Below, in pieces: positions 5,464-29,699 of a DNA stretch of 64,000 bases. Under the pieces are notes generated by a model. The model searched no databases. It was not told the origin of the DNA and saw only the letters and a program-made list of their open reading frames with translations. This DNA comes from an archaeon (GTDB lineage: Archaea > B1Sed10-29 > JAVZDC01): positions 266,871 through 330,870 of the forward strand of contig JAVZDC010000001.1 in the NCBI GenBank assembly GCA_038874115.1, read 5' to 3'. A program made the position numbers and the translations under genes. Positions within the stretch are counted from its first letter, which is position 1. The number at the start of each line of letters is the position of its first letter.

Positions 5464-5782
5464 TTTGCTTGAGTTTGATGTTGGACTTAGCATCGTTGTG
5501 CTTTTGCTTGGTTTAACGATATTTTTTAATTCACTTACCCCTCCAGACGACGATTTCATCAAGAAGTACGAACTCATCGAAAAAAGTAGAATTTTATTGT
5601 TTGATAAGGAGATCGGACTTGCGACGGAGTGTCCTTATTGTATAGCCACTTCGAACTTAGAAAAATCAAAGAATATTCTAAAATTAAAAGAAATAAAAAT
5701 AAATGAAGATCCGGGAATAACTTGCATAAAAAGGATTGCAATTTGTGACAAAAAGGAGGTATGCATTTTATATGTTTGCTAA
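5432..5782 (+). CDS. Hypothetical small Cys-containing secreted protein.
   Basis: 116 aa with an N-terminal hydrophobic segment. Confidence 0.3.
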   Translation: MKTVLLFLVVNLLEFDVGLSIVVLLLGLTIFFNSLTPPDDDFIKKYELIEKSRILLFDKEIGLATECPYCIATSNLEKSKNILKLKEIKINEDPGITCIKRIAICDKKEVCILYVC

Positions 5783-6110
5783 ATCGAAAAGTTTTGCTTT
5801 TTTTACTTTTGATAGCTTGATTTTTCTAATGTTGCTAATTTTAATAATATCAAGTATCCCGAAAGAGGAAAAGATGGATAATTTCGATGTTTTACTTTAT
5901 GAAATTGCTCAAGACGCAGTCCAAACTTGTTTATACCTGGATGAGTTTAATGAAGAATGTCTTAAAGTTTTGAAAAAAATAGATAAAAACATAAATTACT
6001 GTTTTTGCGAACATGAAGGCATCAAGTTTAAAAGGTATACTTCAGAAGGTGAGAAAGTTCTAGTTGTTTGGTACTCCATTCCTAAACGAAATGATGCCTT
6101 TTTTAATTAA
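5772..6110 (+). CDS. Pilin-like protein with a class III (type IV pilin-like) signal peptide.
   Basis: The internal start MFAKSKSFAFFTFDSLIFLMLLILII matches the MKAF-hydrophobic-D pattern of the pilin paralogs at 22.7-23.9 kb. Confidence 0.4.
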   Translation: MFAKSKSFAFFTFDSLIFLMLLILIISSIPKEEKMDNFDVLLYEIAQDAVQTCLYLDEFNEECLKVLKKIDKNINYCFCEHEGIKFKRYTSEGEKVLVVWYSIPKRNDAFFN

Positions 6111-6404
6111 AAAACTTGAAAAATTGCACCTTGAATGAATGCAGAATGAATCACAGCAAAGATTTCCATTACTCGCGCTTACGTTGAGTTCTTGATTAAA
6201 AGAATAGTTTAAACTTGAAACTCCAAAAAATATTGATTTTTCACAAGCTTCTTGAACCTTAAAACAAATGTTTGAAATTTTATTTTTTAATATAATCTTT
6301 TCTCCTGCCTTTTCGAATTTTGAATATACAGGTATAAAAATAAGGATGGATGAAATCAAAAAAGCAAAAAGTATTAAATATTCTAAAGAAACTTGCGCGT
6401 TCAT
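6060..6404 (-). CDS. Pilin-like protein (class III signal peptide).
   Basis: Begins MNAQVSLEYLILFAFLISSILIF (the Q-x-S/T-x-E-Y-L motif typical of archaeal type IV pilins). Confidence 0.55.
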   Translation of the reverse strand: MNAQVSLEYLILFAFLISSILIFIPVYSKFEKAGEKIILKNKISNICFKVQEACEKSIFFGVSSLNYSFNQELNVSASNGNLCCDSFCIHSRCNFSSFLIKKGIISFRNGVPNN

Positions 6405-6556
6405 GTTGCGTTCAAAACTTTTTTCATGTTGGAAACCAAATTCGTTTTTGCGGTGGACCCAAAAGTTTTAGCAGAAACAATAAAAATAAAAGCTAAGCTT
6501 AGAAGTATTGAAGCTATTACTAAAATTTCCAAGGAAGTTTGAGCATTATCGTCCAT
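6401..6556 (-). CDS. Small pilin-like protein (51 aa, class III signal peptide). Not in the ORF track.
   Basis: Translates MDDNAQTSLEILVIASILLSLAFIFIVSAKTFGSTAKTNLVSNMKKVLNAT. Its stop overlaps the ATG of the 6060..6404 gene (ATGA). Confidence 0.5.
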   Translation of the reverse strand: MDDNAQTSLEILVIASILLSLAFIFIVSAKTFGSTAKTNLVSNMKKVLNAT

Positions 6557-6561
6557 TAAAA

Positions 6562-6738
6562 TCACTCTCCTGAAGTAATATTATCGATTGATGCTAAAAC
6601 TTTGTCAGCTTTTTCAGAAAGTTTTGTTGCAGCGTGCTTTACATTTGAATTAAGAGTATTTATAAAAACAAAAGCAACAGCAAGTAATGCTGCAATGATA
6701 ACTATCAATTCAGCTGAGATCTGCGCTCGGTCGTCCAT
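6562..6738 (-). CDS. Small pilin-like protein (class III signal peptide).
   Basis: From the internal Met: MDDRAQISAELIVIIAALLAVAFVFI..., a paralog of the 6401..6556 product. Confidence 0.5.
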   Translation of the reverse strand: MDDRAQISAELIVIIAALLAVAFVFINTLNSNVKHAATKLSEKADKVLASIDNITSGE

Positions 6739-15387: not shown

Positions 15388-16362
15388 ATGGATGTTATTC
15401 CTTGGGTAGAAAAATATAGGCCGAAGAAATTAAAAGAAATTGTTGGGCATGAAGAAATAATAAAAAGATTGGAAAATTATGTGCAAACAAAAAATTTACC
15501 TAATTTTCTTTTTGCCGGACCTGCAGGGGTTGGTAAAACCGCGACTGTTTTAGCCTTGGCTCATGAACTTTTCAAAGATACAATATCTCAAAACTTTTTA
15601 GAATTGAATGCAAGTGATGAAAGGGGGATTGATGTAATAAGGGGAAAAATAAAAGATTTTGCTGCCACGCTTCCGTATGGAGACGTAAAATTTAAGATAA
15701 TATTTTTGGATGAAGCTGATGCTTTAACAAAAGATGCACAAAATGCGCTGAGAAGGACGATGGAAACCTATGCCAACACAACTAGATTTTGTCTAAGTTG
15801 TAATTATAGCAGCAGAATAATAGAACCTATTCAAAGTAGATGCGTGCTTCTCAGATTTAAACCTCTTTCAAAAGAGGAAATTATCAAAAGGTTAAAAATG
15901 ATTGCTGAAAAGGAAAAAGTTAATTGCACAGACGACGGGTATGAAGCATTAGTTTATGCTTCAGAAGGAGATTTGAGAAAGGCGATAAACTTATTACAGA
16001 CTGCAAGTGCATTAGGTGAAAAGGTTACTGAAAAAATTGTTTTTAAAATTGCTGCTAGAGCAAGGCCAAAAGAAGTTAAAGAACTTATAGAATATGCGTT
16101 AAAAGGAAAGTTTGAAGCGTCTCGTGAAAAATTGGATTTTTTACTTTATGAATATGGTTTAAGCGGAGAAGACATCATGCTTCAAATCTATAAAGAGATC
16201 ATAAACTCGAAATTAGACCCAAGACATAAAGTGGAATTAATAGATAAAATCGGGGAATATGATTTTAGGCTTAGTGAAGGCGCGAATGAAAGAATACAAT
16301 TAGAAGCAATGCTAGCTTATTTTGTTTTGTTTGGAGAAAAAAATAAATTAACTGAAGTTTAG
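15388..16362 (+). CDS. rfcS: Replication factor C small subunit.
   Basis: PWVEKYRP, GPAGVGKT Walker A, DEAD-like LDEAD and SRC motifs. Confidence 0.95.
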   Translation: MDVIPWVEKYRPKKLKEIVGHEEIIKRLENYVQTKNLPNFLFAGPAGVGKTATVLALAHELFKDTISQNFLELNASDERGIDVIRGKIKDFAATLPYGDVKFKIIFLDEADALTKDAQNALRRTMETYANTTRFCLSCNYSSRIIEPIQSRCVLLRFKPLSKEEIIKRLKMIAEKEKVNCTDDGYEALVYASEGDLRKAINLLQTASALGEKVTEKIVFKIAARARPKEVKELIEYALKGKFEASREKLDFLLYEYGLSGEDIMLQIYKEIINSKLDPRHKVELIDKIGEYDFRLSEGANERIQLEAMLAYFVLFGEKNKLTEV

Positions 16363-17379
16363 AGAAAACCTTAAAATGGCTACAATCCCACCAAAAGCTG
16401 CTAATTTTTTACTTTCTTCGTTTTCGTGAGAAATAAATAAAACTTTGGCTCCCTTTTTCTCCACTTCTTCTAAAATCTGTTCCAAATTTTCTCTTTTCTC
16501 AAAAAGTAAAGAATCCAATACTAAAAGAGTATCAACTGCTCCACAAGTAATTGCCTCTTTTATTTGCTCAAAACCGTACGCTACTTTCGATGAATCTTTT
16601 GAAAGTTGTTCTATAAAACTATCTATAGCTTTTGTTTCTTGAGAAAATCTATTCTGACGAATTAATTTTTCCAAAGTTCCTTTTTTCACAAGTTCATAAA
16701 CTCCTTGTGCTCCTGTGTTTCCCGTACTTTCAATAAGTGTTTTTTCTGCTAGTTGCTTATTTTTCTCTTTCAAGAATTTATAGAAGTTTTCTTTTTCAAA
16801 ACCAGGCCCGGCTAAAATTAGAAAATCAATTTCAGATTTTGAAATTAAATTATAAATATCTTTAAAATATTCCGTCTTTTCTCCCATGCCTTCTTTTATA
16901 CCTGAAGTACTTACTTGTCCTTTACTTTTTATCCCTGATAAAAATATTTGAAAAAGCTCTGCTTCCCTTTCATCAAGCACTAAAATCGATAATTTTGGTT
17001 TTTTACTTTCTTCCTGCGCCTCTAAAAGACGAGAAATTTCATGTTTTTTCCAAACCTGTTTTTGAATTGTTATCCGATCGTTTATAGATACATCTATAGA
17101 ATGGTATGCTCCTTTTGGTGCATACTCCTCTGGGTTCGCTTCCAGAATTTTTCCTAAAATTCTAAGAGATTGGAAATTTGGATTAAATTCTACTTTTTCC
17201 ACAGATATTTTCAAAATAATTGGTTTTTTCTCCGCCCGACCGCCTTCTGAAATAAATTTACGGTGTGTAAAAGCAGTAACTTGATCCCCGGGAGAAATTA
17301 CTTTTTCTAAATGCCATAAATCCTCCAAACTTTCTATTTTTACTTTCTTTATATTTTCCGATTCATCAAAAACATGCAT
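16348..17379 (-). CDS. pelA: Pelota/Dom34 (aPelota) mRNA surveillance factor.
   Basis: 343 aa with an eRF1-like three-domain pattern. Confidence 0.88.
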   Translation of the reverse strand: MHVFDESENIKKVKIESLEDLWHLEKVISPGDQVTAFTHRKFISEGGRAEKKPIILKISVEKVEFNPNFQSLRILGKILEANPEEYAPKGAYHSIDVSINDRITIQKQVWKKHEISRLLEAQEESKKPKLSILVLDEREAELFQIFLSGIKSKGQVSTSGIKEGMGEKTEYFKDIYNLISKSEIDFLILAGPGFEKENFYKFLKEKNKQLAEKTLIESTGNTGAQGVYELVKKGTLEKLIRQNRFSQETKAIDSFIEQLSKDSSKVAYGFEQIKEAITCGAVDTLLVLDSLLFEKRENLEQILEEVEKKGAKVLFISHENEESKKLAAFGGIVAILRFSLNFS

Positions 17380-17413
17380 AATCTTTATATATTTCCTTTA
17401 ATTATAAGTTTTT

Positions 17414-17608
17414 ATGCAGGTGGATAAAATTGGGTTAATATTCTTAATCGTCGGCCTTTTAATTTTGGGTGGAATGTTTACTTTTGTCATCCCAGGCGGA
17501 TTTTCCATATCCGGAATTATTAATGCTTTTTGGCTATTGGTTCAAGGGGGTCTTATTCTAGCGGGCATTATGTTCTTATTTTTCGGATTTCTTCTAATGT
17601 TTTTTTAA
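17414..17608 (+). CDS. Small membrane protein, hypothetical.
   Basis: 64 aa, two hydrophobic helices. Confidence 0.3.
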   Translation: MQVDKIGLIFLIVGLLILGGMFTFVIPGGFSISGIINAFWLLVQGGLILAGIMFLFFGFLLMFF

Positions 17609-17619
17609 GTTGAGCTAAA

Positions 17620-19299
17620 ATGAGGATTGCTGTTATTGATAAAACTAAATGTCAACCTAGAAAATGCAATTTTACCTGTATTTCAGTATGTCCTGGAGTT
17701 AAGACTGGGAAAAAAACTATAGTTGAGGAAAATAATTTTCCGGTGATTTATGAAAATCTTTGCATCGGATGCGGAATATGTGTTAAAAAGTGTCCGTTTA
17801 ATGCGATAAAAATAGAAAATTTAGCTGAGGAAAAAGGATACTTGGCTTATAGATATGGGAAAAATGGGTTTGGAATTTTCAATTTGCCCATTCCAGATAA
17901 AGGAGTCGGGGTCATAATAGGAAGTAATGGTATTGGAAAAACGACGACTTTAAAAATACTTTCTGGAAGCTTAAAAGTAGATTTTCAAAATTTTCCAAAG
18001 CAAGCTCAAGATTGGTTAAAAGAAGAAAGAAGTGTGGTTGTTAAACCTCAAGAATTAAAAATAAGTAAAAAAGAAAAGGTCAAAGATGTGATTTTAAGAA
18101 ACGATGAAAGAAAAGTAGCACCAGAGATCATAAAAAAGTTAGAATTAAATGATTCTTTGGATAAAGATTTGGATGAATTAAGTGGGGGAGAATTGCAAAG
18201 AGTTGCTATTGCTTGTGCTTGTTGTAAGAAGGCAGAATTTTATTTTTTTGATGAACCTTGTTCTTTTTTAGATATAAAACAAAGGCTAAATGTTGCTGAG
18301 GTTTTGAAAGATTTGAGCAAAGAAGCAAACGTTCTGGTTATTGAGCATGATTTAGCTGTGCTTGATTATCTTGCAGATTATGTCTACATCATTTATGGAA
18401 AACCAGGGGTATTTGGAGTTTGTTCAAATAAAAAGAATGCGAGAGTTGGGGTAAATGAATATCTTTTTGGTTTCTTGAAATCCGAGAATGTAAGGATCAG
18501 GGATTTTGAGTATACTTTTGAGAAGAAACCTCCAGCCTCTGAATGGAAAGGTAAGAAATATGTAGAATATCCTTCTTTTGAGAAAAAATGGCCTAGTTTT
18601 GAGCTTAAAGTTGAAGGGGGTAGATTGATAAAAGGAGAGGTTGTCGGTTTGGTTGGTCCAAATGCGATTGGAAAAACAACCTTTGTAAGAGTTTTAGCTG
18701 GAGAAATAGATATTGGGAAAAAGATAGATTTGGGAAAAGTCGCATATAAACCTCAGTATTTAAACATAAATTCTGAAAAAACTGTTTTTGATTTCTTAAA
18801 TTCTCAAAAATTGGATCAAGCTATCTTTGAAGAAACAAAAAGTTTTGTTTCTGAACTTTTCGATAAACAAGTTAACACACTTTCGGGTGGAGAATTACAA
18901 AGAGTTGCAATAGTAAATGCTTTATGTTTACCTTCTGAAATTTGCCTTTTAGATGAACCTTCTGCATATTTGGATATTGAACAACGAATAAGTTTAGCAA
19001 AACTTATAAAAAAGATTACTGAGAAAACGGAAAGAATTAGCTTGGTTGTAGATCATGACATCTCATTCATAGATTCTATCTCGAATCGATTAATAGTATT
19101 TAATGGAGAACCTGGGAAAAAAGGTTTTGCAAATGCTCCAGTAAGCATGAGAGAAGGAATGAACTCCTTGTTGAAAAATTTTGATATAACATTTAGGAGG
19201 GATAAAGATACTGGAAGGCCAAGAATGAATAAAAAAGGTTCGCAAAAAGATATTGAACAAAAAAAGATGGGAGAATATTACTATGTTATCTCCGAATGA
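17620..19299 (+). CDS. abcE1: ABCE1/RNase L inhibitor (ribosome recycling factor).
   Basis: N-terminal CxxC ferredoxin-like 4Fe-4S domains plus two ABC ATPase domains (GSNGIGKTT, GPNAIGKTT, LSGGELQRVA x2). Confidence 0.95.
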   Translation: MRIAVIDKTKCQPRKCNFTCISVCPGVKTGKKTIVEENNFPVIYENLCIGCGICVKKCPFNAIKIENLAEEKGYLAYRYGKNGFGIFNLPIPDKGVGVIIGSNGIGKTTTLKILSGSLKVDFQNFPKQAQDWLKEERSVVVKPQELKISKKEKVKDVILRNDERKVAPEIIKKLELNDSLDKDLDELSGGELQRVAIACACCKKAEFYFFDEPCSFLDIKQRLNVAEVLKDLSKEANVLVIEHDLAVLDYLADYVYIIYGKPGVFGVCSNKKNARVGVNEYLFGFLKSENVRIRDFEYTFEKKPPASEWKGKKYVEYPSFEKKWPSFELKVEGGRLIKGEVVGLVGPNAIGKTTFVRVLAGEIDIGKKIDLGKVAYKPQYLNINSEKTVFDFLNSQKLDQAIFEETKSFVSELFDKQVNTLSGGELQRVAIVNALCLPSEICLLDEPSAYLDIEQRISLAKLIKKITEKTERISLVVDHDISFIDSISNRLIVFNGEPGKKGFANAPVSMREGMNSLLKNFDITFRRDKDTGRPRMNKKGSQKDIEQKKMGEYYYVISE

Positions 19300-20050
19300 A
19301 CTTAATGAAATAATTGAAAACTTGGATATTGAATTTTCCGATTCTTGTTTTGAAAAAGAACTTTACGAAGCTTTAGATAGAAATTGTTTTGGGGATGTAG
19401 TGTTTTTTTCAGGGGGCGTCGATTCAACTCTTTTGGCTTATTTAGCAAATAAAAAGAAAAAAGTAATATGTTGTACTTGTGGAATCCCTGGTGCTGAAGA
19501 CTTAATCTTTGCTGAAAAAGTTTGTGAAAAAATGAATTGGTTGTGGCAACCAATAATCGTTGAAGATTTAAAAGAATACATAAAAGAAGTTATGAGAATA
19601 ACTCATAGAAAAGATCCTTTGGGAATCTCTCTAGGGTTAATTACATACTTGATTTTGAGTTCCAGACCTGAAAAAGTTTTTATATCTGGCTTGGGTGCTG
19701 AAGATTTATTTGCTGGGTATTCTAGGTTTAAAAAAGCAAAAAATTATGACGAATTGCACAAAATGCTTTACGATTCTTTGAAAGAACTTCCAAAAAGAGA
19801 CTATGAAAAAGATTATTTGATTGCAAGAGAACTTGGGAAAGAAATAATTTATCCTTTTTTAAGTAAAGAAGTTTTGCAAATTGCCATGAAAATACATCCA
19901 AAATATAAGCTGGGAGACCAAAATAAGTTGATTTTGAGAAAAATTGCATCAAAATACATTCCAGACTTTTCCGTTTATCGGATTAAAAGAGCAGCGCAAT
20001 TTGGTTCTGGTTTTTGGAAAAAAGTTAAGAAAATTTTAAAAGAAGTTTAA
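19283..20050 (+). CDS. PP-loop ATPase of the asparagine-synthetase C-terminal domain family (no glutaminase domain).
   Basis: VVFFSGGVDSTLLAYLA (PP-loop, SGGxDS) and the AsnB-like C-terminal block NKLILRKIASKYIP...RIKRAAQFGSG. Confidence 0.6.
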   Translation: MLSPNELNEIIENLDIEFSDSCFEKELYEALDRNCFGDVVFFSGGVDSTLLAYLANKKKKVICCTCGIPGAEDLIFAEKVCEKMNWLWQPIIVEDLKEYIKEVMRITHRKDPLGISLGLITYLILSSRPEKVFISGLGAEDLFAGYSRFKKAKNYDELHKMLYDSLKELPKRDYEKDYLIARELGKEIIYPFLSKEVLQIAMKIHPKYKLGDQNKLILRKIASKYIPDFSVYRIKRAAQFGSGFWKKVKKILKEV

Positions 20051-20409
20051 AAAACTATAATTTTGACTCCAAAAACCTTTTCCATAATTTCTTTTGCTTT
20101 TGGTGATGATTTTAATAGCATTAGGTCTGGTTTTTCTACATTAATTATTCTAGAAAGTTTATCAATCAAGCTTCCCCATTCATCGTATATTTTACATTTT
20201 GGACCAAATTTCTCAGAAAAAAACTCCAAAGTTTTTTGTTTATTCTTAATTTCTGTAGAAAAAGCAAGAGTTGAATTATCGCTATGTTCGACAATGTTTA
20301 CTAAAATAATTTTATCTGCAGAAGAACAAAACTCCAAATATTTTTCAAAAAGTTCGGACTCGTCTCCAGATATTATTGGGATTATAACCTTATGCGCGCA
20401 CATATACAC
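20047..20409 (-). CDS. Universal stress protein (UspA)-like.
   Basis: 120 aa with the pattern HKVIIPI.SGDESE...KIILVNIVE. Confidence 0.45.
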   Translation of the reverse strand: MYMCAHKVIIPIISGDESELFEKYLEFCSSADKIILVNIVEHSDNSTLAFSTEIKNKQKTLEFFSEKFGPKCKIYDEWGSLIDKLSRIINVEKPDLMLLKSSPKAKEIMEKVFGVKIIVF

Positions 20410-21121
20410 CTTTCTTCTTCTCGATAAACAAACCTTCTTCTTTTAAAACCTCGAGTAAAGCCTTACAAGCTTCCTCATTTAAACCAGTTTCTTTTACTAT
20501 TTCAGCTAAAGTCTTAGGTGTTTTTAAAATTTGCTCTAACTTTGGCCTGTATTTTTTCAAAAAGTCTTTAAAAACAATATAATATTTTTTATCAAAACTA
20601 CGAACGCCTACAACTTCAGAATCCAAAGCCAATTCTTTTATTTTTTTATTTAATTCCTCTGCTTTCTTCTCATCTGAAAAACAAAGGTATTTCTTTCTTT
20701 TTAGAACGGAAATTTCATCCCCTCCTGATTCTGGAAGTATAAACTTAAAATATTCTTTAGATATTCCGATAAGTTCCTTTTTATCCTTTACATACTTAAA
20801 AAATATTTTCTCCTCGAGCATTTTAGAAAATAAATCAAATTCTTCTTTTGTTAATACATTGCGAATGTTATCCAAAGTCCTGTTCCAATATTTTAAAGAA
20901 TTTACTTTCTTTAGAACGTTTAATTTTTTCGGATCTAGATCAGAAACTTTTTTAACAAATAAAACCAAGTTTCCATATGGATTTAAAAACTCAACTTCGT
21001 CCTCATCTTCAAGTTCTAAAATCTCCCTAACTTTTTCTGGAATTTCCACGTATCTTTTTCCTTTTAGCAAAAAAATTTTCATAAATATCAAGTTTTTGCT
21101 TGACCGAGTAATAAAACACAT
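20390..21121 (-). CDS. Hypothetical protein with a C-terminal winged-helix-like segment.
   Basis: 243 aa, C-terminus TLAEIVKETGLNEEACKALLEVLKEEGLFIEKKKGVYV. Confidence 0.4.
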   Translation of the reverse strand: MCFITRSSKNLIFMKIFLLKGKRYVEIPEKVREILELEDEDEVEFLNPYGNLVLFVKKVSDLDPKKLNVLKKVNSLKYWNRTLDNIRNVLTKEEFDLFSKMLEEKIFFKYVKDKKELIGISKEYFKFILPESGGDEISVLKRKKYLCFSDEKKAEELNKKIKELALDSEVVGVRSFDKKYYIVFKDFLKKYRPKLEQILKTPKTLAEIVKETGLNEEACKALLEVLKEEGLFIEKKKGVYVRA

Positions 21122-21579
21122 TCTTCGTCTGGATCTATCTTAACAGTAAGACCTTCATAGGTTTTATTTAAGGCAAGCTTGATTACTGTTATAAAAGGAT
21201 GGATTCTAAAACAATATGGTTCAAAACCTTCATCTAAAATAGCCTTACAAATATTCCGATAGGTGCATGGAGCACGTACTACGCATTTTAAAATCCCTTT
21301 CTTTTCTTCTATCTGTATTCTTTCAGAAGGAATAAATTTTTCTTTATCCATGAAAGCAATATATTTTTGGCAAGCTTCCAGTGGAGTTTTCGCCTTAATC
21401 TGCACTTTGCGATCATTTAACCATTTCTGTACTGCCTCTGCTTGCACTTTTCTCACAAAATCTTCATTTTCTCCCCCTACTTTTCCCAAGGCATAAATCC
21501 AAGTATTAAAAATAGTGGATAGAATTCTGTTCTGATCTTCAAGTATTTTAATCTTGTTCTCTTCTTTCATAAACACCAC
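21088..21579 (-). CDS. Cys-containing hypothetical protein (possibly a V4R-like small-molecule binding domain).
   Basis: 163 aa, C-terminal Cys cluster CVVRAPCTYRNICKAILDEGFEPYC. No secure family call. Confidence 0.4.
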   Translation of the reverse strand: MVFMKEENKIKILEDQNRILSTIFNTWIYALGKVGGENEDFVRKVQAEAVQKWLNDRKVQIKAKTPLEACQKYIAFMDKEKFIPSERIQIEEKKGILKCVVRAPCTYRNICKAILDEGFEPYCFRIHPFITVIKLALNKTYEGLTVKIDPDEECVLLLGQAKT

Positions 21580-22320
21580 TTAAAACAATCTTTCTTGAGG
21601 GTATATGGATATTCCTTTTGAAGATATTACATATGGTCTAATTGATCTATCGCAGTTTGCACCTCTTTGTTTCAATACAGTTATCCCTCTTTTCCTTTCC
21701 TCTCTACTAAGATAATCTCGCATCAATATTAAACTATCTGCTAAAAAGTCTTCAAAAGAAAATTCTTCTTCTTGTTTTGATTTCTCAGATATTATTATTG
21801 AAGTTAGGCCTTGTCTTTTAAGATATTGAAATAAAGCTGCTATTTCAACTCTTGTCTGGCTTTCATCGACGCTTGATAATTTTAAAACACTCAAGCTGTC
21901 TATCACAAGTCTAGAGTAATTCTCACTGCTTAAAGAGTCTTTTATGGTAAAATATAAATCCATGATTGTTGGAGGTTTTGGAGGAGTCATTTTTGCCAAA
22001 CTTGGACTTATTCTTGGGTCCAATTGTTCGTATTCAACTGGAGATAATTTAAACTGTTTAAAAACCAAAAGGCCTTTTTCTAAATATGCCGTTAGGGGGA
22101 TCCCCAAATTTTGTACATTATTTATTATTTGCTGACTATTTTCTTCTAAAGAAATATAAAGTCCTTTTTCTCCCAATTCTGCACCTTTTGTTAAAAATTG
22201 CACTGCGAGGATTGTTTTTCCCGATCCAGGGGTTCCAGCGATTAAGTTTACAGAATTCTTTAAAAAACCGCCCCCAAGTAAAACATCTAACCCGGGAACT
22301 CCGGATGAAACCCTTTCCAT
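21580..22320 (-). CDS. KaiC/RecA-superfamily ATPase (FlaH/ArlH-like).
   Basis: 246 aa single KaiC-like domain with Walker A IAGTPGSGKTILAVQF. Placed at the distal end of the pilus operon. Confidence 0.8.
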   Translation of the reverse strand: MERVSSGVPGLDVLLGGGFLKNSVNLIAGTPGSGKTILAVQFLTKGAELGEKGLYISLEENSQQIINNVQNLGIPLTAYLEKGLLVFKQFKLSPVEYEQLDPRISPSLAKMTPPKPPTIMDLYFTIKDSLSSENYSRLVIDSLSVLKLSSVDESQTRVEIAALFQYLKRQGLTSIIISEKSKQEEEFSFEDFLADSLILMRDYLSREERKRGITVLKQRGANCDRSIRPYVISSKGISIYPQERLF

Positions 22321-22364: not shown

Positions 22365-22742
22365 TTATGATGAAAAACTACTCGAAACTGCGGAAGTTTT
22401 GCAAACCACCCCATCTTCAGTACATACTGTAAAAGTAACAGTTATACTACTTGGGCAATTATCTGAAAGGGTATAAGTGACATTCATGCCGCTCGAGTTT
22501 ACTAAACTATTTGAAAATATGCTCCTTGCATATTCTTTTCCAGTTGTGCAATTTACTGCATTACTTGTTGCGCTATAAAAAGCATTCTTTAAATCTTTTA
22601 CCCTGTATGCGACAGACAATATCTTTATTGCGTTTTGCTCAGATTCGTCAATTTTTTGCTCGACTATGAAAATCTGCAAAGCTAAAAATAGGAAAATCAC
22701 TCCAAGAGCCGCACCTATCGAAGAATAAACAAACCCTTTCAT
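22365..22742 (-). CDS. Pilin-like protein (class III signal peptide).
   Basis: MKGFVYSSIGAALGVIFLFLAL... Confidence 0.6.
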   Translation of the reverse strand: MKGFVYSSIGAALGVIFLFLALQIFIVEQKIDESEQNAIKILSVAYRVKDLKNAFYSATSNAVNCTTGKEYARSIFSNSLVNSSGMNVTYTLSDNCPSSITVTFTVCTEDGVVCKTSAVSSSFSS

Positions 22743-23032
22743 TTATAACACACCACGGTAACGTTAGCCTTTAACTGGCTCCCATCCCAGTATAAGTTTG
22801 TAAAAGCTGCTGTATCTTTTGCATTTTTACAATTTTCATTCCCTAAGTAAAAATCTTCATTTTCAAAATCGAAATTTGAGCCTACGATGAACGCATCTCT
22901 GGAGTAAAAGAAAAGATTCAAAGAAGAATGGTGTGAATAAGACATTAAATAGAAACTTACTGTTAAAAATAACGTTGCTATTGCTATCGCAAGTACGGCA
23001 TCCATTGAAATGAAAAACGCTTTCATGAACAC
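22739..23032 (-). CDS. Pilin-like protein (class III signal peptide).
   Basis: MFMKAFFISMDAVLAIAIATLFL... It overlaps the neighbouring genes by 4 nt and 10 nt. Confidence 0.6.
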   Translation of the reverse strand: MFMKAFFISMDAVLAIAIATLFLTVSFYLMSYSHHSSLNLFFYSRDAFIVGSNFDFENEDFYLGNENCKNAKDTAAFTNLYWDGSQLKANVTVVCYK

Positions 23033-23475
23033 ACCTTAACTATTAAATCACCATTATATTCAGTTGAATCATTTACAACTTTAACTAATCTTTTGATTGT
23101 TGCTAGATTATTCTTCCTGAAGCATGCATCTTTATTCCAATACTCATGGTTTGCCCTTCCTAATCCAGGCTTATATGCTCCGTATGCCAATTCAACTTCA
23201 AAAGTATACCTTGCTATCCCGGAATTCTTTAAATATTCGCATCCGCTTTTTATTGTACTCATGTTTACTTTATTATCGTAGCCTGGCAAAATTGTTGAAT
23301 TTTTGGTTAAAAACTCTGAAATATCTTCTGCTTGGAAAAAAAGATCGTAGTTCTGGAATTCTTTTGTTTTCGAAACATAAACATCCAAAAAGTGAAAAGT
23401 AAAGCCTACCAAAAATAAACCAAGAGCTGCAGACAAAAGAAAATCTAAAGTAAAAATTTGAGCTTTCATACACAA
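23023..23475 (-). CDS. Pilin-like protein (class III signal peptide).
   Basis: MCMKAQIFTLDFLLSAALGLFLV... Confidence 0.6.
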   Translation of the reverse strand: MCMKAQIFTLDFLLSAALGLFLVGFTFHFLDVYVSKTKEFQNYDLFFQAEDISEFLTKNSTILPGYDNKVNMSTIKSGCEYLKNSGIARYTFEVELAYGAYKPGLGRANHEYWNKDACFRKNNLATIKRLVKVVNDSTEYNGDLIVKVCS

Positions 23476-23850
23476 TCACGGGAGTAACATTTCACCTGGT
23501 CGTATCTTAACGTTTAATGCAGCTATTTGTGAAGAGTCTTGATTCCTGCAAGTAGCTTGAATTTTTGAATTTTGATAAGAAAAATTACAAACGTCTAATC
23601 TTGCGCCTTCTATTTTCATTTGACTATAGTTAGATAAATCTTCTCGAAATGTTAAATCCCGCTGAGTATAATGAGTGGATAAAAGGTTTGCTTGATGAGC
23701 TAATCCCCAAGCCATAACGTCTGCTGAAAGTTTTAATGCTTTTGAACCCATCATCGCGAAATCTTGGGTAAATAAAAGTAAAAAACTTCCAAATATTAAA
23801 GTTAACAACATCGCAATCATCAAATCTAAAGATGAAAAAGCCTTCATCAT
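23476..23850 (-). CDS. Pilin-like protein (class III signal peptide).
   Basis: MMKAFSSLDLMIAMLLTLIFGSF... Confidence 0.6.
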   Translation of the reverse strand: MMKAFSSLDLMIAMLLTLIFGSFLLLFTQDFAMMGSKALKLSADVMAWGLAHQANLLSTHYTQRDLTFREDLSNYSQMKIEGARLDVCNFSYQNSKIQATCRNQDSSQIAALNVKIRPGEMLLP

Positions 23851-24149
23851 TCTCCCCTTATCTCAACTGTATAACCACCAAGATTTTTTTCGCTCAAGTA
23901 TGCTTGAACTCCGTCAGGAGTGATTGAACACGATTCTTTTTTGATAGTCAGAGTAATCTCGTTTTTATCTAAAGTTTGGGATTCAACTATACAAAAGTTG
24001 GAAAGAGCGTATTCTTTTGCAAAAGCTAAAGCTCGAATATCGTCGCTTTTCGATACGAAAATACCAGTGAATGAAACCACGGTGAAAGTAATCGCTGCTA
24101 AAATAATTAATAGTTCGAAAGTGGTTTGACCTTTATGTCCTTTTAACAA
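23847..24149 (-). CDS. Pilin-like protein (class III signal peptide).
   Basis: MLKGHKGQTTFELLIILAAITF... (KGQ-TxFE motif). Confidence 0.65.
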   Translation of the reverse strand: MLKGHKGQTTFELLIILAAITFTVVSFTGIFVSKSDDIRALAFAKEYALSNFCIVESQTLDKNEITLTIKKESCSITPDGVQAYLSEKNLGGYTVEIRGE

Positions 24150-24534
24150 TTACCTCACCAAATGAATTTGCAGATATCGATTGCCCTGCATTATCGTATT
24201 CAAATCCGGATGGTAAGATTCCAAAAGTTTGAGGAACATCTTTGGCTGGAGAATTTGGATTGCAACTTGCAGTAATATTGTTGTTATTCAATATATACGC
24301 ACAATCATAAGGAGCTTTTAGAAGAATTGTAACTTTTGCTCCAGATCCTTGAGTTTTCAAGAAGTTTACTGCTTGTTTTACTTTCGTATCGGATGCTTTA
24401 ATTAAACTATTTGCTTCAAGAAGAATGCCTGTATCTGCTGACTTTAAAGCAAGATTCAAGGATATTGTTGAAAATATGAGAAGTGAAATTGCTAAGATGA
24501 CTAAATATTCTATTGTTATTTGGCCTTTCATCAT
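24133..24534 (-). CDS. Pilin-like protein (class III signal peptide).
   Basis: MMKGQITIEYLVILAISLLIF... Confidence 0.65.
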   Translation of the reverse strand: MMKGQITIEYLVILAISLLIFSTISLNLALKSADTGILLEANSLIKASDTKVKQAVNFLKTQGSGAKVTILLKAPYDCAYILNNNNITASCNPNSPAKDVPQTFGILPSGFEYDNAGQSISANSFGEVIVKRT

Positions 24535-24692
24535 ACCACCAAGTTCATAATTTGGTTCTTAAAACTATCTAAAATTGTCACTCCTGCTTGCGATAAAGAA
24601 ATTATTTGGGAAACTAAAGCAAATATCACTATGGAAAACATAAAAAGGACTACGAGACCAAGTAAATATTCGAAAGAAGTTTGGCCTTTCAT
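24531..24692 (-). CDS. Small pilin-like protein (53 aa). Not in the ORF track.
   Basis: Translates MKGQTSFEYLLGLVVLFMFSIVIFALVSQIISLSQAGVTILDSFKNQIMNLVV. ATGA overlap with the downstream gene. Confidence 0.55.
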   Translation of the reverse strand: MKGQTSFEYLLGLVVLFMFSIVIFALVSQIISLSQAGVTILDSFKNQIMNLVV

Positions 24693-24847
24693 GAAAGCAC
24701 CTTTGTTTTTATCGCATCTAAAAGACCCACAACTGTATCTTTTAAACCAAATATTTGAAGTATTAACGCTAAAAGTACGATAGCGATTACTAGAGTTAAA
24801 GCAAGGGACATCAAATAATCTAAAGAAACTTGGGCTTTGTTATCCAT
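24689..24847 (-). CDS. Small pilin-like protein (52 aa). Not in the ORF track.
   Basis: Translates MDNKAQVSLDYLMSLALTLVIAIVLLALILQIFGLKDTVVGLLDAIKTKVLS. ATGA overlap with the downstream gene. Confidence 0.55.
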   Translation of the reverse strand: MDNKAQVSLDYLMSLALTLVIAIVLLALILQIFGLKDTVVGLLDAIKTKVLS

Positions 24848-24853
24848 AAGTTG

Positions 24854-25600
24854 TTAAAAGCATGGGAAATTTAAAAACTTTGCCACAGGCCCGTACAAGA
24901 AACCTAAAGAAAGTAAAAAAGCTAAAGGAAAACTTCTTTTAACTTTTACTTTTTTGAAATGTTCCTTCAAAATTTGAGCCTCTTTTTCAGAAATTCCTGA
25001 AGCCTTTGGAATTATTCTATATTTTCCAACTTTGATTTCTTCGGCTAAAATCAATCCTTCTCTTGGTTCTGTTTCAAACGTAAAAATCGAATCTTTTGAA
25101 GATTTGAAAGCATGGAAAAATAGGAAAAAGTATGTGGAAATTAAAAATGCGGGAAAATAAGCAATTTCAAAAAGGGAAAAGAATAAAAACGTTAAACAAA
25201 GGATTAAAGCAAGTTTGCTTGACTTTAAAGATTTGAAGAATTTTTCCCTATTTTTTAAAACTGCGAAACTAATGACGTAAGCTGACGCTAGAGGAAAGAA
25301 TAAAATAAGGGCTTGTAAGATAGCTAGGAAAGGATAAAAACAAATAGAGAAACAAGGCATAAGGGCACTTGCAGCAGTGAAAAATTTTACATCTCCCCCT
25401 CCAACTAACCTAATTTTATAAAGAACATAAAAAGAGAGAAATGAAAGTAATACTACGAAAAAAGTTTGAGGGTAAAAATTTATTATAATCCCTGTACTTA
25501 AGAAAAAATAATTCAATTCTCTTGGAATTTTATGATACTTCAAATCGAAAAAAGATGTAAGAATGAAAAAGATTAAAGAATAAAAAAGGGTTAAAGACAT
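24854..25600 (-). CDS. Type IV prepilin peptidase (A24 family; PibD/FlaK/EppA-like) with a C-terminal extension.
   Basis: Polytopic protein with the D...GGGDVK motif (RLVGGGDVKFFTAASALMP) and an N-terminal DLKYHKIP (first catalytic Asp). Confidence 0.8.
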   Translation of the reverse strand: MSLTLFYSLIFFILTSFFDLKYHKIPRELNYFFLSTGIIINFYPQTFFVVLLSFLSFYVLYKIRLVGGGDVKFFTAASALMPCFSICFYPFLAILQALILFFPLASAYVISFAVLKNREKFFKSLKSSKLALILCLTFLFFSLFEIAYFPAFLISTYFFLFFHAFKSSKDSIFTFETEPREGLILAEEIKVGKYRIIPKASGISEKEAQILKEHFKKVKVKRSFPLAFLLSLGFLYGPVAKFLNFPCF

Positions 25601-25626: not shown

Positions 25627-25947
25627 TTAAGGTTCACAGTTTAAAAAAGACGCTTGGGTGGCTGTAGTATTATTACATGCGACAACCATGGTGGAGCCAA
25701 GAGTACATCCCGATTTGGAATTTCCAATATCCGAACAACCAGCTGTGCATATCGAAGTACAATCAAAAGTAGGTGCTATTGCTCTTTTCTGCTGGCATTG
25801 AGCAAAAGCTTCTTCACATTTTGCAAGACTTGCAGATTTCGTACTTGTCTTAAATGCTCCAGTCATAAACAAAACGACTACTGCAGCAATTGCTAAAACT
25901 GCTGCGACCATGATTAGGTATTCTAAAGAACCTTGCCCTTTTTTCAT
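25627..25947 (-). CDS. Cys-rich type IV pilin (class III signal peptide). Probable major pilin.
   Basis: MKKGQGSLEYLIMVAAVLAIAAVVVLF... followed by 10 Cys in a short mature domain. Confidence 0.7.
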   Translation of the reverse strand: MKKGQGSLEYLIMVAAVLAIAAVVVLFMTGAFKTSTKSASLAKCEEAFAQCQQKRAIAPTFDCTSICTAGCSDIGNSKSGCTLGSTMVVACNNTTATQASFLNCEP

Positions 25948-26027: not shown

Positions 26028-26921
26028 TTATAATGCTGCCGGTACGCCTAAACCAAGCATTGAAATAAATAAAGACGCGACAAATACATATATCAAATAT
26101 GCACCAAGCATTGCGATCGGGATCAAAACAACTCCTTTGGAAAGGTCGCCTTCTCTAACTTGGACTGCGCCTGCCGTAGTTAAAGCTGCAGAAACTATGA
26201 CATAAAACTTGAATAAAGTATCGAATTGAGCAACCATGGAAAAAGTTTCTTGAGTCATTTCTCCTCCCATGCCAACCAAAATCTGAAGAACTGATTTTAC
26301 AATTCCGAAAACAAATGGAGCGACCCCTGCTCCCGCAACTAAAATAAATAAAAATTGCATGAATGTTTTAGTCTTTCTTTCTCTTTTCAATCTATAAAGA
26401 GCACGAATATCATCAGCCAAAGCGGTTAAAGTATCCAAAAGGGAGCCTCCAGCTTTTTTTGCTGCGATTATTATGACTGCGGCTCTTTGTAACATTTCAG
26501 ATTTTGATCTAGTTGCAAAGTCTGAAAATGCTGTCTCAAATGGCTTCCCCTCATACATCTCTTTAAGCATATCTTTTACTCCTGATGTTATTGGCCCATA
26601 ATTTGCTTTAGATACCTCAGTCAAAGCTGTTTCGATAGTCCCACCAGTTTTTAAAGTTGTACCGATGTGGTGCAAAACATCAGGTAATCTACTTTCAATA
26701 TTAGCTATCTTTCTTTGAACAAGATAAAAAGGCCCTCCTATTGAAAGGTCTAAAACTAAAACAAATAGAAGAAAACCAAGTGTTGGATCGACAAAATACA
26801 AGGAAAATAAGAGAATTAAAGCTATGGCTATGCCTCCGAATAAAAGGAATTTTGGATTTATTTTTATGTCTGCGTATTCCACTGCATCTTCATATTTTGC
26901 CAATAGTTCTGAAATGTCCAT
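26028..26921 (-). CDS. TadC/FlaJ-like pilus assembly membrane protein.
   Basis: 297 aa polytopic protein of the GspF/TadC type. Follows its paralog and the ATPase. Confidence 0.7.
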   Translation of the reverse strand: MDISELLAKYEDAVEYADIKINPKFLLFGGIAIALILLFSLYFVDPTLGFLLFVLVLDLSIGGPFYLVQRKIANIESRLPDVLHHIGTTLKTGGTIETALTEVSKANYGPITSGVKDMLKEMYEGKPFETAFSDFATRSKSEMLQRAAVIIIAAKKAGGSLLDTLTALADDIRALYRLKRERKTKTFMQFLFILVAGAGVAPFVFGIVKSVLQILVGMGGEMTQETFSMVAQFDTLFKFYVIVSAALTTAGAVQVREGDLSKGVVLIPIAMLGAYLIYVFVASLFISMLGLGVPAAL

Positions 26922-26923
26922 TC

Positions 26924-28090
26924 TTAAGCACCCGGATCTGAAACTTTAATGTAATAAATAAACACAAAGATTAACGCTGGACATATTACGAAATATAAAA
27001 GAATCAAAAAATCCACGCTAAATACGGAAAACATTGCCAGATATTTCTTTATGGCTGGAGCACTACCGATTGTTGTTAATATTGTTATCATGACTGGTAA
27101 AACAACAGCCCCCATCATTAAAAACAATCCTAACAAATTTAATTTTTCTGCGAAATCAGCTATTTTTGATTTTCTTTCAAAAGATACATCTTCCGCAATG
27201 GTTATCATTATTTCGGATAAATTTCCCCCAGTCCTTAAAGCTCTAACAATGTGTGCAACTACTCTCTTCAATGCTTCTGAATTTGTTTTATTCGCCCAAG
27301 CTTGCAATGCATCTTCAGTCGGAATTCCTTTTTCTATATTGAGAAGAACCCATCTTAAACCTTCTGAAAACGCTCCATATCCTCCATGAGCAACAGATGT
27401 TAAAGTCTTATGAATTCCGACCCCTGCTCTAATCTCGATTGACATGTGTCTTAACGCAAAAGGCAAATGTTTTTCTATATCTGCAGCTATCTTTGATGCT
27501 CTACTTCTTGGAATCACTAAACCAAAAGCAAGCCCAACAAAAGGCAATATTAACAACCCTAAAACTAAAATAGGTAAACTTATTGCTCCTACGAACAAAA
27601 GCAAGATAAAAAAGATTAAAGCTACAAGCTCGAGTATAAAAATTCCGGAAATTAAAAGTGCGATATACTGTTGAGCCGTATAAGGCATATCTGCCGCAGC
27701 GAGTTGATCTTCCAACCCTTTACCAAAAAGTCTTTCAAAAAAAGTAGAAAAATATGAAAGAATATTTTGGAATTTAAGGTAAAAACTTCCTAAAGCTCTA
27801 ATTGTCGGATTCTCATGCGCCTGAAGTTCTCTCACAGTAGGTCCAACTATTTTAGTTGCTCTTGGCCCGTAGTCCAAAACCTCTTTCAAAGCTGCCGCTC
27901 GTCCATATTCTTCTATAGTGATACCCTCTTCCACGTATTTCGATTTTAATCTTTCCACAATTTTAGAAAGAACCTCGTAATCTACAGCTTCTTCACTTTT
28001 AATTTCTTCCTTTTCTTCTTTTTTCGCTGGTTTCTTCTCTAAAATTTTCTTTAAATCTTCAATTCTACCCATGCTTTTCAGACTCCTCAA
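26924..28090 (-). CDS. TadB/TadC/FlaJ-like pilus assembly membrane protein.
   Basis: 388 aa with a cytoplasmic N-domain and multiple TM helices. Overlaps the ATPase gene. Confidence 0.7.
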   Translation of the reverse strand: MRSLKSMGRIEDLKKILEKKPAKKEEKEEIKSEEAVDYEVLSKIVERLKSKYVEEGITIEEYGRAAALKEVLDYGPRATKIVGPTVRELQAHENPTIRALGSFYLKFQNILSYFSTFFERLFGKGLEDQLAAADMPYTAQQYIALLISGIFILELVALIFFILLLFVGAISLPILVLGLLILPFVGLAFGLVIPRSRASKIAADIEKHLPFALRHMSIEIRAGVGIHKTLTSVAHGGYGAFSEGLRWVLLNIEKGIPTEDALQAWANKTNSEALKRVVAHIVRALRTGGNLSEIMITIAEDVSFERKSKIADFAEKLNLLGLFLMMGAVVLPVMITILTTIGSAPAIKKYLAMFSVFSVDFLILLYFVICPALIFVFIYYIKVSDPGA

Positions 28091-29699
28091 ATTTACGTAT
28101 TTCTAATGCGACATCCGATAATTTTCGTATATTTTTCTTAACTAAAATTTCTAGGAAATCTTTCCTTTTTTCTTTTTCGTAATCGAGATCACTTTTTGAC
28201 ATCCCTGTAAACTTCATCAGCCTGTTTTCATACCTTGAAGATAAATTATTATTCTTTATTATGTCTGGAGCTGGGTCCCATTCGAAAAGAAGTTGAGTTT
28301 GAGGAGCATTCCCTGCTATACCTTGAATTTCAGCAAGTTCTGTCACTCTTCTAATTGTACCTTTTCTAGGATCTACAATTCTTTGTTGCATCAAGACAAA
28401 ATCCAAAGCGTCAAGCATCACTAAAGGAACATTCATCGGTGGGCTTAGAAGACGAACTAATGTTTCCTGAGCACTGTTTGCATGAACTGTACCCATGCAT
28501 CCATGGTGCCCAGTGTTCATGGCAGTGAACAAAGTAAAAGCTTCTGCATGTCTTATTTCCCCGACTATGATTCTGTCAGGTCTCATTCTCAAAGTATTTT
28601 TAACCAAAGTATCTAAAGTAATTTCTCCCAAACCTTCGATACTTGGAGGTCTAGCTTCAAAACGTATCCAATGCGAAAGAGGTAAATTAAGTTCTGCCGT
28701 ATCTTCTATAGAAAGAACTCTTTCTCTTGGGGGTATGAAAGATGCTAAAACGTTTAAAGTTGTAGTTTTCCCAGATCCTGTTCCTCCAGCAACCAAAATA
28801 TTTGCTGGATGCGCACCAAGCCCGGTAACTGCTAACCATAAGAACGCTGCTAATTCTGAAGATATTGTTCCATATTTTATTAAATCTACAACTGAATAAG
28901 GATCTGATCTAAATTTTCGGATAGTCAAAGTTGATCCATTCAAAGAAATTGGAGGAATAGTTGCGTTAACTCTGGATCCATCTGGTAGTCTTGCATCTAA
29001 AATCGGAGACTGCAAGTCAACTCTTCTATTTACATCTCTAGCGATTCTATCTATTATATTTCGAATTTCAGAATCGTCAGAAAAAACAACATTTGTCTTA
29101 AGCATGCCAAACTCTCGATGAAAAACATAAACTGGAGCTTGCGGTCCAATTACCATGATTTCTTCCAATTTATCATCTCTTACAAGATCATCAATAAGCC
29201 CATACCCAACCATTTCTTTCATGACTTGGAGAGCATAAAAATCAACTCTAGTGGAAGGTACTCCAAGTTCTGGACTTGCTTCTATTATTTCTTTAACTTT
29301 TTTGAAGTAAAATTCTCTTTTCCTCTCTATATCTCTGAATTCTTCAGGAGAAACTGTTATCAACCTTGTTGCGGCTTCTTTTATTGTTGAAATTAAAACT
29401 TTTTCTGGCCCTGTTGGTCTAACAACAGGAATCGCATATATTAGCAAAGGCTCTCCAGGCACTTTATAAATTCTTACAGAACCATAACTCGCTATCAAAC
29501 TTTTTTCTTTAGGCAACTCTGCTTCAATCTCTAAAAACTTTTGCTCAACTTTTAATTCTGGTTTTCCCTCTTTTTTTAATTCCGGTTTTTCTTCAGGTTT
29601 TTTCTCTTCAACCTTTTCTTCCACGGGCTTTACTGGAACGATTCCAGCTTCTCTTTCTTTTTTTGCTTTTTTCATTAATTCCTCAATATAAGAAGGCAT
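28065..29699 (-). CDS. Type IV pilus assembly ATPase (FlaI/TadA/VirB11 family).
   Basis: 544 aa with Walker A GGTGSGKTTTLN and Asp/His boxes typical of secretion ATPases. Confidence 0.9.
   Translation of the reverse strand: MPSYIEELMKKAKKEREAGIVPVKPVEEKVEEKKPEEKPELKKEGKPELKVEQKFLEIEAELPKEKSLIASYGSVRIYKVPGEPLLIYAIPVVRPTGPEKVLISTIKEAATRLITVSPEEFRDIERKREFYFKKVKEIIEASPELGVPSTRVDFYALQVMKEMVGYGLIDDLVRDDKLEEIMVIGPQAPVYVFHREFGMLKTNVVFSDDSEIRNIIDRIARDVNRRVDLQSPILDARLPDGSRVNATIPPISLNGSTLTIRKFRSDPYSVVDLIKYGTISSELAAFLWLAVTGLGAHPANILVAGGTGSGKTTTLNVLASFIPPRERVLSIEDTAELNLPLSHWIRFEARPPSIEGLGEITLDTLVKNTLRMRPDRIIVGEIRHAEAFTLFTAMNTGHHGCMGTVHANSAQETLVRLLSPPMNVPLVMLDALDFVLMQQRIVDPRKGTIRRVTELAEIQGIAGNAPQTQLLFEWDPAPDIIKNNNLSSRYENRLMKFTGMSKSDLDYEKEKRKDFLEILVKKNIRKLSDVALEIRKFEESEKHG

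Follow-up and report, generated by a model that had tools for sequence, protein, structure and literature searches.

What do the eight small, tightly packed genes at positions 22365 to 24847 of this archaeal contig encode, and to which machine do they belong? They lie in a stretch of 64 kb that was analysed as a whole (hereafter, the window), and an earlier sequence-only reading had described them as eight translationally coupled pilin paralogs. Our analysis points to pilin-like proteins that serve as subunits of a type IV filament machine of the Epd-like kind ("System 1", related to Tad) in an uncultured DPANN-type archaeon, an assignment that we consider very probable. All eight open reading frames (ORFs) are on the minus strand and are numbered here g8 to g1 in the order of transcription. 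Since many related loci contain these families in an unchanged order, sequence comparison indicates that the array is old and made up of seven distinct families with set positions (C, C, g6, g5, g4, g3, g2, and g1).

Gene lengths and starts were checked against the sequence; in what follows a slash marks the putative cleavage site. The array opens with two very short genes, g8 (24689..24847; 52 aa, mature 47 aa; MDNKA/QVSLDYL) and g7 (24531..24692; 53 aa, mature 50 aa; MKG/QTSFEYL), which are two copies of a short pilin termed type C below. Two longer pilin-like genes follow, namely g6 (24133..24534; 132-133 aa; MKG/QITIEYL) and g5 (23847..24149; 100 aa from a TTG start; MLKGHKG/QTTFELL). The remaining four form a terminal module: g4 (23476..23850; 123-124 aa; MKA/FSSLDL, with Asp at +5), g3 (23023..23469; 148 aa from an ATG, the ORF extending to 23475; MKA/QIFTLDF, with Asp at +6), g2 (22739..23026; 95 aa from an ATG, the ORF extending to 23032; MKA/FFISMD, with Asp at +6), and g1 (22365..22742; 125 aa; MKG/FVYSSIG, with no acidic residue at +5 or +6).

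All eight proteins begin, as had been noticed earlier, with a short basic stretch and a hydrophobic helix. The leaders are three to seven residues long and end in K-[G/A] (from g8 to g1: MDNKA, MKG, M(M)KG, MLKGHKG, M(M)KA, MKA, MKA, and MKG), and the helices span about 20 residues, with mean Kyte-Doolittle values over 16 residues of 1.84-2.79. A FlaFind-style rule ([KR][GA][ALIFQMVED][ILMVTAS] plus a hydrophobic stretch) was run on 1560 start variants from the window. Ten ORFs matched it, seven of which lie within the 2.5-kb array, so that g2 alone among the eight fails the rule, and only by its +2 residue. An acidic residue is found at +5 in g8, g7, g6, g5, and g4, at +6 in g3 and g2, and is absent in g1. 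The two N-terminal subfamilies proposed earlier roughly match the motif classes seen here, but three classes (+5, +6, and no acid) describe the array better. Gln occupies +1 in five of the eight proteins and also in the 106-aa pilin encoded upstream. N-glycosylation sequons are more frequent than in the cytoplasmic neighbours (1.9 versus 0.53 per 100 aa) and cysteine counts are even in most of the globular-domain proteins; from sequence, the portions beyond the helix are probably extracellular. These sequence features give good support to a reading of the eight products as type IV pilin-like proteins with a class III signal peptide.

The two smallest genes were, as reported, missing from the original ORF track, which is explained by its length cut-off alone. 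The public annotation of the metagenome-assembled genome (MAG) GCA_038870695.1 calls all eight genes, the 52- and 53-aa ones included, and identical sequences of the two short ORFs are present on nine contigs. Likewise, g3 is publicly annotated as 148 aa, and the TTG start of g5 was chosen in two public annotations. A collinear, ungapped copy of the locus with 95.8% identical DNA and all genes intact occurs in a second MAG. Compared with this strain, the ratios of non-synonymous to synonymous substitution (pN/pS) are 0.07-0.20 across the genes, including 0.08 for g8 (four of five substitutions synonymous) and 0.19 for g7 (three of five). All array genes, the two short ones among them, are therefore under purifying selection. 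A plus-strand ORF of 87 aa (24520..24783) is antisense to g7 and g8; we rejected it as a true gene, as the substitutions between the strains fall mainly at minus-strand third codon positions, and it is probably not a gene.

The array is the distal part of a single tightly packed minus-strand operon that comprises an assembly ATPase, two platform genes, a PF04021 pilin, and an A24 peptidase ahead of the eight genes. The first gene (28065..29699) encodes an ATPase of the T2SSE/VirB11 superfamily (PF00437, E=1.9e-50) whose best match among solved structures is the Tad pilus ATPase CpaF (265 bits over 327 residues), followed by archaeal GspE2 (255 bits) and, with 219 bits over 417 residues, FlaI; among NCBIfam models, those for FlaI and TadA both match it under their cut-offs. 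The platform is encoded by two genes with one T2SSF domain each, a TadB-like one at 26924..28090 (PF00482, E=7.3e-20; annotated as 382 aa) and a TadC-like one at 26028..26921 (PF00482, E=2e-19). After an 80-nt AT-rich spacer comes the 106-aa pilin (25627..25947; MKKG/QGSLEYL), preceded by a GGTGA Shine-Dalgarno sequence 6 nt upstream. This protein scores 37.6 bits against PF04021 (class III signal peptide, DUF361), above the gathering score, and 56.8 bits against a profile of pilins from relatives that we call type B; it has a Cys-rich C-terminal part, and its mature portion contains 8 Cys and 2 sequons. Directly upstream of the array lies the prepilin (class III signal) peptidase (24854..25600; PF01478, E=7.2e-11), with both expected catalytic Asp residues (D19, and D70 in a GGGD motif) and a pN/pS of 0.10 against the 95.8%-identical strain. 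The window peptidase has 248 aa, compared with 327-370 aa in relatives, and shows no detectable Arc_PepC/Arc_PepC_II C-terminal domain, which the relatives have. Finally, 44 nt downstream of g1, a KaiC/FlaH-like single-domain ATPase is encoded on the same strand (21580..22320; PF06745, E=4.5e-52; NCBIfam KaiC_arch_3 1.8e-39 and ArlH 5e-12, both under cut-off), possibly as an accessory or regulatory component.

Epd-like filaments are known as "clade 1" (Makarova et al., 2016), "Epd-like" (Denise et al., 2019), or "System 1" (Sivabalasarma & Albers, 2026), are thought to be the source of bacterial Tad/Flp pili, and have been reported in some DPANN archaea. A split platform, very short pilins, and a dedicated peptidase are their published hallmarks, which is why we regard the locus as an Epd-like one of a known sort. 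Specifically, it shares with the Epd (EppA-dependent) pilus of Methanococcus maripaludis a platform of two adjacent single-T2SSF genes and very short pilins without a globular domain (g8 and g7, and also those at 6401..6556 and 6562..6738, described below), and apparently also a dedicated A24 peptidase within the locus and PF04021-type leaders with Gln at +1. At least five additional pilin-like genes in one operon and a FlaH/KaiC-like second ATPase are further points in common; "at least 5" minor pilin genes are given for Epd-like loci in the literature, and a second ATPase that resembles FlaH is counted among the Epd genes by Denise et al. (2019). The differences are that the window pilins belong to no described family, that domain scans of the window operon detected no DUF2341/PilY-like adhesin or FleN/MinD ATPase, and that the order here is ATPase, platform, and pilins, whereas in Epd the platform precedes the ATPase.

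The resemblance to bacterial Tad/Flp loci lies in the ATPase, whose best solved match is CpaF, in the split TadB-/TadC-like platform, in the subunits of about 50 aa with a [GA]/xxxxEY motif (here [GA]/QxxxEYL), and in the run of longer pilin-like genes downstream. Tad systems have the Flp pilin, the pseudopilins TadE, TadF, and TadG, the peptidase TadV, the ATPase CpaF/TadA, and the platform proteins TadB and TadC. On the other hand, the archaeal system described here is without a secretin, TadD, and TadZ, has no significant match to Pfam Flp_Fap or TadE, and shows a nearly invariant Gln at +1. A further parallel is offered by DPANN archaea, in which unannotatable genes with signal peptides that lie beside type IV pilus (T4P) core genes have been read as diverse pilins (Makarova, Wolf & Koonin, 2019; PMC6393860). 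Here too, small unannotatable signal-peptide genes accompany FlaI/TadC-type genes; that paper offers a general statement and one figure, and its text, as far as consulted, holds no family-by-family order or signatures.

The same parts could in principle build a short pseudopilus, or a retractile fibre for DNA uptake or protein export, as the gene set equally fits both functions and the four-gene module with its acid-less last member recalls the GspH-K pseudopilins. Genes required for natural transformation have also been screened for in M. maripaludis (PMC10133366), a study that may connect type IV-like pilus genes with DNA uptake. We regard this alternative as unlikely. Domain scans of the operon recognised no retraction ATPase, DNA receptor, or channel gene, the studied Epd and Tad relatives are described as adhesive pili, and very short pilins are typical of those filaments. 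For the Epd-like filament, adhesion to surfaces or host cells is the likely role.

Next, the recurrence of the array in other genomes was examined, with a 10-kb flank around homologues of the ATPase. A scan of GTDB species representatives gave best matches of 42-44% identity, one of them in a Ca. Iainarchaeum MAG, and a metagenome scan recovered 80 loci at about 55-75% identity. Where relatives carry a taxon name, it is Ca. Diapherotrites/Iainarchaeum. These related loci were annotated by BLAST, the leader rule, and profiles built from the emerging groups; those named individually below carry the labels L002, L003, L018, L029, and L084-L092, L018 being the closest (ATPase 63% identical over the full ORF and 68% in the best tblastn segment). 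A recurring order emerged. Its first half runs ATPase, TadB, TadC, short pilin A (about 48 aa), pilin B (QGxxEYL, about 100 aa, often in two copies), short pilin C (about 56 aa), and peptidase, and its second half consists of g6-like (about 150 aa), g5-like (about 105 aa), g4-like (about 140 aa), g3-like (about 165 aa), g2-like (about 91 aa), and g1-like (about 135 aa) genes. The window order is B, peptidase, C, C, g6, g5, g4, g3, g2, and g1. In 24 loci the sequence continues for 8.5 kb or more past the ATPase; in this set, where distal groups often lie beyond the 10-kb flank, the groups were present in 20 (B), 17 (A), 16 (g6), 14 (C), 14 (peptidase), 11 each (g5, g4, and g3), 9 (g2), and 7 (g1) loci. 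In L018, the peptidase is followed by the equivalents of all eight genes in an order identical to that of the window. The tandem array is thus conserved in relatives in a fixed order, small ORFs included.

Each position of the array also has a cleavage-site signature of its own, and each window gene fits that of its position. For types A, B, and C, this is [KR][AG]/Q-x-x-x-E-Y-L, with Glu at +5 in 98 of 104 sequences, to which g8 and g7 belong. The signature of g6 relatives is KG/QxxxEF and that of g5 relatives KG/QxxxE. All 15 g4 counterparts carry KG/QISLD(+5)L, compared with KA/FSSLD in the window, and g3 counterparts carry KG/QIFSxD(+6)F, with Q-I-F-[ST]-x-D-F common to all nine and KA/QIFTLDF in the window. 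In the ten g2 counterparts, KG/FxFSxE(+6) is found together with two conserved Cys (window: KA/FFISMD), whereas the eight g1 counterparts show KG/F followed by hydrophobic residues and no acid (window: KG/FVYSSIG).

These signatures bear on whether only the Gln-type g8, g7, g6, and g5 are pilins, with g4 to g1 being signal-anchored surface or membrane proteins in which K-[G/A] remains uncleaved. Such a division would account for the fact that g4 to g1 have no Pfam or NCBIfam match, not even a weak one to PF04021, and that g1 has neither the acidic residue nor a structural match to known pilins. Nevertheless, we find it improbable. All members of the g3-, g2-, and g1-like families have [KR]-G immediately ahead of the helix and those of the g4-like one [KR]-[GA], Gln or Phe at +1 is conserved save for Tyr or Leu in 3 of 10 g2-like sequences, and the acid is fixed at +5 or +6 in g4, g3, and g2. 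Moreover, the relatives keep the module linked with pilin genes or with the pilus operon, and bacterial minor-pilin sets include subunits without the acidic residue, GspK and PilX having no Glu5.

The positions are distinct beyond their leaders. When the eight window proteins were compared with those of L018 by Smith-Waterman z-scores, the matrix was diagonal, the positional counterpart being the best match for every protein (from g8 to g1: 12.6, 9.9, 27.5, 9.3, 4.6, 3.5, 8.6, and 9.1). The match is weak for g4, and for g1 it reaches 5.4 in the C-terminal part. Profiles of the C-terminal domains gave no cross-hits between groups, and shared ancestry beyond the N-terminal 30 residues or so is therefore not demonstrable. 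Only g8 and g7 are a lineage-specific duplicate pair within one family. Type C is the best profile for both (31.8 and 22.6 bits, respectively), and they align without internal gaps to 22 type-C sequences of relatives. Across these 24 sequences Q+1, Y+6, and L+7 never vary, and position +5 holds either Glu or Asp. In addition, blastp matched g8 to sequences from 10 related loci (29-47% identity), and the best L018 match of g7 is the second short gene there. By BLAST clustering, the related loci contribute 24 members to the family of g6 (profile match 49.4 bits; E=8e-4 with a profile of the C-terminal part only) and 18 to that of g5 (profile match 35.2 bits), while g3 matches its profile at E=5.7e-5 in the N-terminal part only. 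At the family level, PF04021 was matched by all 19 scanned g6-family sequences at E<=0.1 and by 16 of 24 type-C sequences at E<=1, and no other domain matched either group consistently.

This pattern is hard to reconcile with the idea that the array arose as eight tandem paralogs by duplication, with the gene overlaps enforcing equal production, which we now hold to be quite improbable. The common leader and hydrophobic N-terminus, the five ATGA overlaps, and the single family of g8 and g7 speak for it. However, the likeness is confined to the N-terminal 30 residues or so, and seven families keep a fixed order even in distant relatives; "eight paralogs" is therefore not supported. As regards the overlaps, neighbours had been said to overlap by ATGA or by a few nucleotides, and this applies to six junctions: ATGA stop/start overlaps at g8/g7, g7/g6, g5/g4, g3/g2, and g2/g1 (with the g2 ATG at 23026), and a 17-nt overlap at g6/g5, where the TTG start of g5 stands behind a GGTGAGG motif. 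It does not apply to g4/g3, which abut if the TTG start of the ORF track is used or are 6 nt apart with the likelier ATG at 23469. Overlapping is a habit of this genome, since 17 of the 45 same-strand neighbour pairs in the window overlap, six of these by 4 nt. In L018, most of the equivalent junctions are gaps of 6-24 nt. Judged against the window pairs and the closest relative, the stop/start overlaps are thus neither conserved nor specific to the array. In addition, seven of the eight genes have a Shine-Dalgarno-like GGTG, AGGTG, or GGAG of their own 2-8 nt upstream (AGGTG at 5 nt in g7). The overlaps are compatible with co-transcription and termination-reinitiation and do not imply equal stoichiometry. 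To our knowledge, major and minor pilins are not produced 1:1, and equal amounts of pilus subunits would be unusual; the "stoichiometric co-translation" proposed earlier is unsupported by these data.

A reduced archaellum (motility) operon is highly improbable, for although the ATPase fits FlaI best among the NCBIfam models (318.7 bits) and there is a weak match of the KaiC-like protein to ArlH/FlaH, these matches are far under their cut-offs (550 and 215 bits), the ATPase is nearer to CpaF than to FlaI, the platform is split, the subunits have Gln at +1 and are far shorter than archaellins, and domain scans of the operon found no archaellin, FlaF/G, or two-domain FlaJ-type platform.

Several results weigh against the assignment to an Epd-like filament and have to be set beside the evidence above. 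None of the eight proteins reaches the PF04021 gathering threshold (23.7 bits): g6 and g5 score 21.3 and 16.3 bits, respectively, and the other six have no PF04021 match at E<=1 and no family match in Pfam or NCBIfam. The placement follows from gene content and the best PDB match rather than from phylogeny. When g7 and g3 were used as queries in word-indexed searches of 5.8 billion proteins, each retrieved its own cluster (96% identical) and nothing else; the proteins therefore evolve fast, and the conserved ATPase was used as the anchor for the related loci. The orthology of g4, g3, and g2 is drawn from position, length, and N-terminal signature only, and these three window proteins were undetected by C-terminal-domain profiles from the relatives. 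An AlphaFold2 model of window g1 from a 20-sequence alignment had low confidence (pLDDT, the predicted local distance difference test, of 60), and Foldseek against the PDB at E<=0.001 retrieved no solved pilin with either this model or that of a g1 ortholog (P0005). Elsewhere in these searches, PDB profiles of the type-C and g6 families matched transmembrane-helix look-alikes only. The Foldseek matches of the low-confidence g1 model were set aside as meaningless, and a match of g1 to a TATA-binding-protein model in the Pfam/NCBIfam scans was disregarded as chance.

The ortholog model was better defined (pLDDT 84, predicted template modelling score (pTM) 0.65). It combines a transmembrane helix at the N-terminus with two more helices and a sheet of four strands, and its predicted architecture is pilin-like. 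The window g1 and its counterparts share a "[DL]-N-C" motif near the C-terminus. The family is small: 20 of its clusters were found by word-indexed searching, and a search of 1.84 billion proteins gave 70 representative clusters at E<=0.001. Its named members come from Ca. Diapherotrites and Ca. (I)ainarchaeum only. In Iainarchaeum-type MAGs, the g4-g1 module lies apart from the ATPase, beside ABCE1 and Pelota.

How might such a set of subunits work as an Epd-like filament? Following established type IV pilin biology, the prepilins would insert into the membrane, and the adjacent peptidase would cut after the Gly or Ala at -1, leaving Gln or Phe at +1. Once processed, the subunits would be extracted by the ATPase and the TadB/TadC platform and built, by way of their N-terminal helices, into a polymer in which the acid at +5 or +6 pairs with the N-terminus of a neighbouring subunit. 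Candidates for the bulk of the filament are g8 and g7, which resemble Flp/EpdE-type pilins without a globular domain, the 106-aa type-B pilin, whose Shine-Dalgarno sequence is the best and which has the AT-rich spacer ahead of it, and the stand-alone short pilins at 6401..6738. In this scheme g6, g5, and g4 to g1 would be minor subunits, present in small amounts, with a part in priming assembly or decorating the tip, and the acid-less g1 would be the best candidate for the tip-most subunit, by analogy with GspK/PilX.

A more specific proposal, which we advance tentatively and consider possible rather than likely, is that g4-g3-g2-g1 is an archaeal minor-pilin module that forms a priming or tip complex with the acid-less g1 as its cap, as a counterpart of the bacterial GspH-I-J-K and PilV-W-X sets. 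The likeness to GspH-I-J-K and FimU-PilV-W-X consists of four consecutive, packed pilin-like genes that end the operon in a fixed order and of which the last has no acid. It does not extend to the sequences or, by Foldseek, to the fold of the g1 ortholog, and the comparison is one of genes alone. Given that no PDB match was obtained, the minor-pilin analogy is drawn only from gene organisation and the missing acidic residue. In host-dependent DPANN archaea, such a module might be the host-recognition end of the pilus.

Other genes accompany the module in the relatives. Nineteen related loci within L018-L092 (e.g., L029:16944-17975) also encode a membrane protein of the TctA family (PF01970, E~1e-23) and a protein of the JAB/MPN type, the TctA gene lying on the strand of the pilins and usually between the g5-like and g4-like genes. 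The pair follows g1 in L018 (17927-19445) and directly precedes the four-gene module in L003 (19485-20998), the two loci in which the place and strand of the JAB gene were checked. Neither gene is found anywhere in the 64-kb window. As they stand upstream of the module in most relatives, these proteins could be further parts of it. ABCE1 (RLI) is encoded near the pilin array in the window (16348..19299), in L018, and in the Iainarchaeum-type MAGs, and Pelota near it in the window and in L002/L003, which suggests a genomic neighbourhood conserved despite large sequence divergence.

A second pilin cluster occupies 4793..6738 on both strands of the window. Its minus-strand coupled set consists of a 58-aa short pilin (6562..6738; MDDRA/QISAEL), which passes the PF04021 gathering score with 30.1 bits and weakly matches Flp1_like (E=0.0016), a 51-aa short pilin (6401..6556; MDDNA/QTSLEIL), and a 114-aa pilin-like protein (6060..6404; MNA/QVSLEYL). 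The leaders of the latter two have Asn in place of Lys or Arg at -2 (DNA/Q and NA/Q) and so depart from the usual class III motif. Divergent to these are four overlapping plus-strand ORFs (4793..5179, 5170..5463, 5432..5782, and 5772..6110), each with an N-terminal hydrophobic helix, the last of which begins with MFAKSKS/FAFFTFDSL. In total, the window contains at least 13 clear pilin-like genes plus three plus-strand ORFs with an N-terminal hydrophobic helix only. By analogy with EpdE, the major subunit may be found among these stand-alone short pilins.

Downstream of the KaiC-like gene, three abutting or overlapping minus-strand ORFs without a family match follow (21088..21579, 20390..21121, and 20047..20409), the second with a weak winged-helix match at its C-terminus (E=0.02). 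The KaiC-like gene and these three ORFs were absent within 10 kb of the ATPase in all 80 related loci; the linkage of the 20047..22320 genes to the pilus operon may be lineage-specific or a coincidence. In several relatives (L084-L092) the ORF for the pilus ATPase extends to about 1000 aa, and in the one locus scanned (L085:9485-12502) the ATPase domain is split by an intein (PF14890, 6.3e-27) with LAGLIDADG and helix-turn-helix domains. The window ATPase has no intein. An Rfam scan of the window returned four tRNAs only, all distant from the locus.

For the annotation of these genomes, eight "hypothetical proteins" become assigned parts of an Epd/Tad-like pilus operon, and simple N-terminal signatures are now available for seven pilin families overlooked by standard profile libraries. 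The pilus system itself is expected. Fast-evolving pilin arrays beside T4P core genes are already known in DPANN archaea. In small symbiotic archaea, pili are the usual candidates for attachment to surfaces or hosts. The fixed-order four-gene module with an acid-less last subunit is the sole element that might lead to something new: if it were indeed a tip or priming complex, an organising principle of bacterial type IV filaments would extend to the archaeal Epd/Tad lineage.

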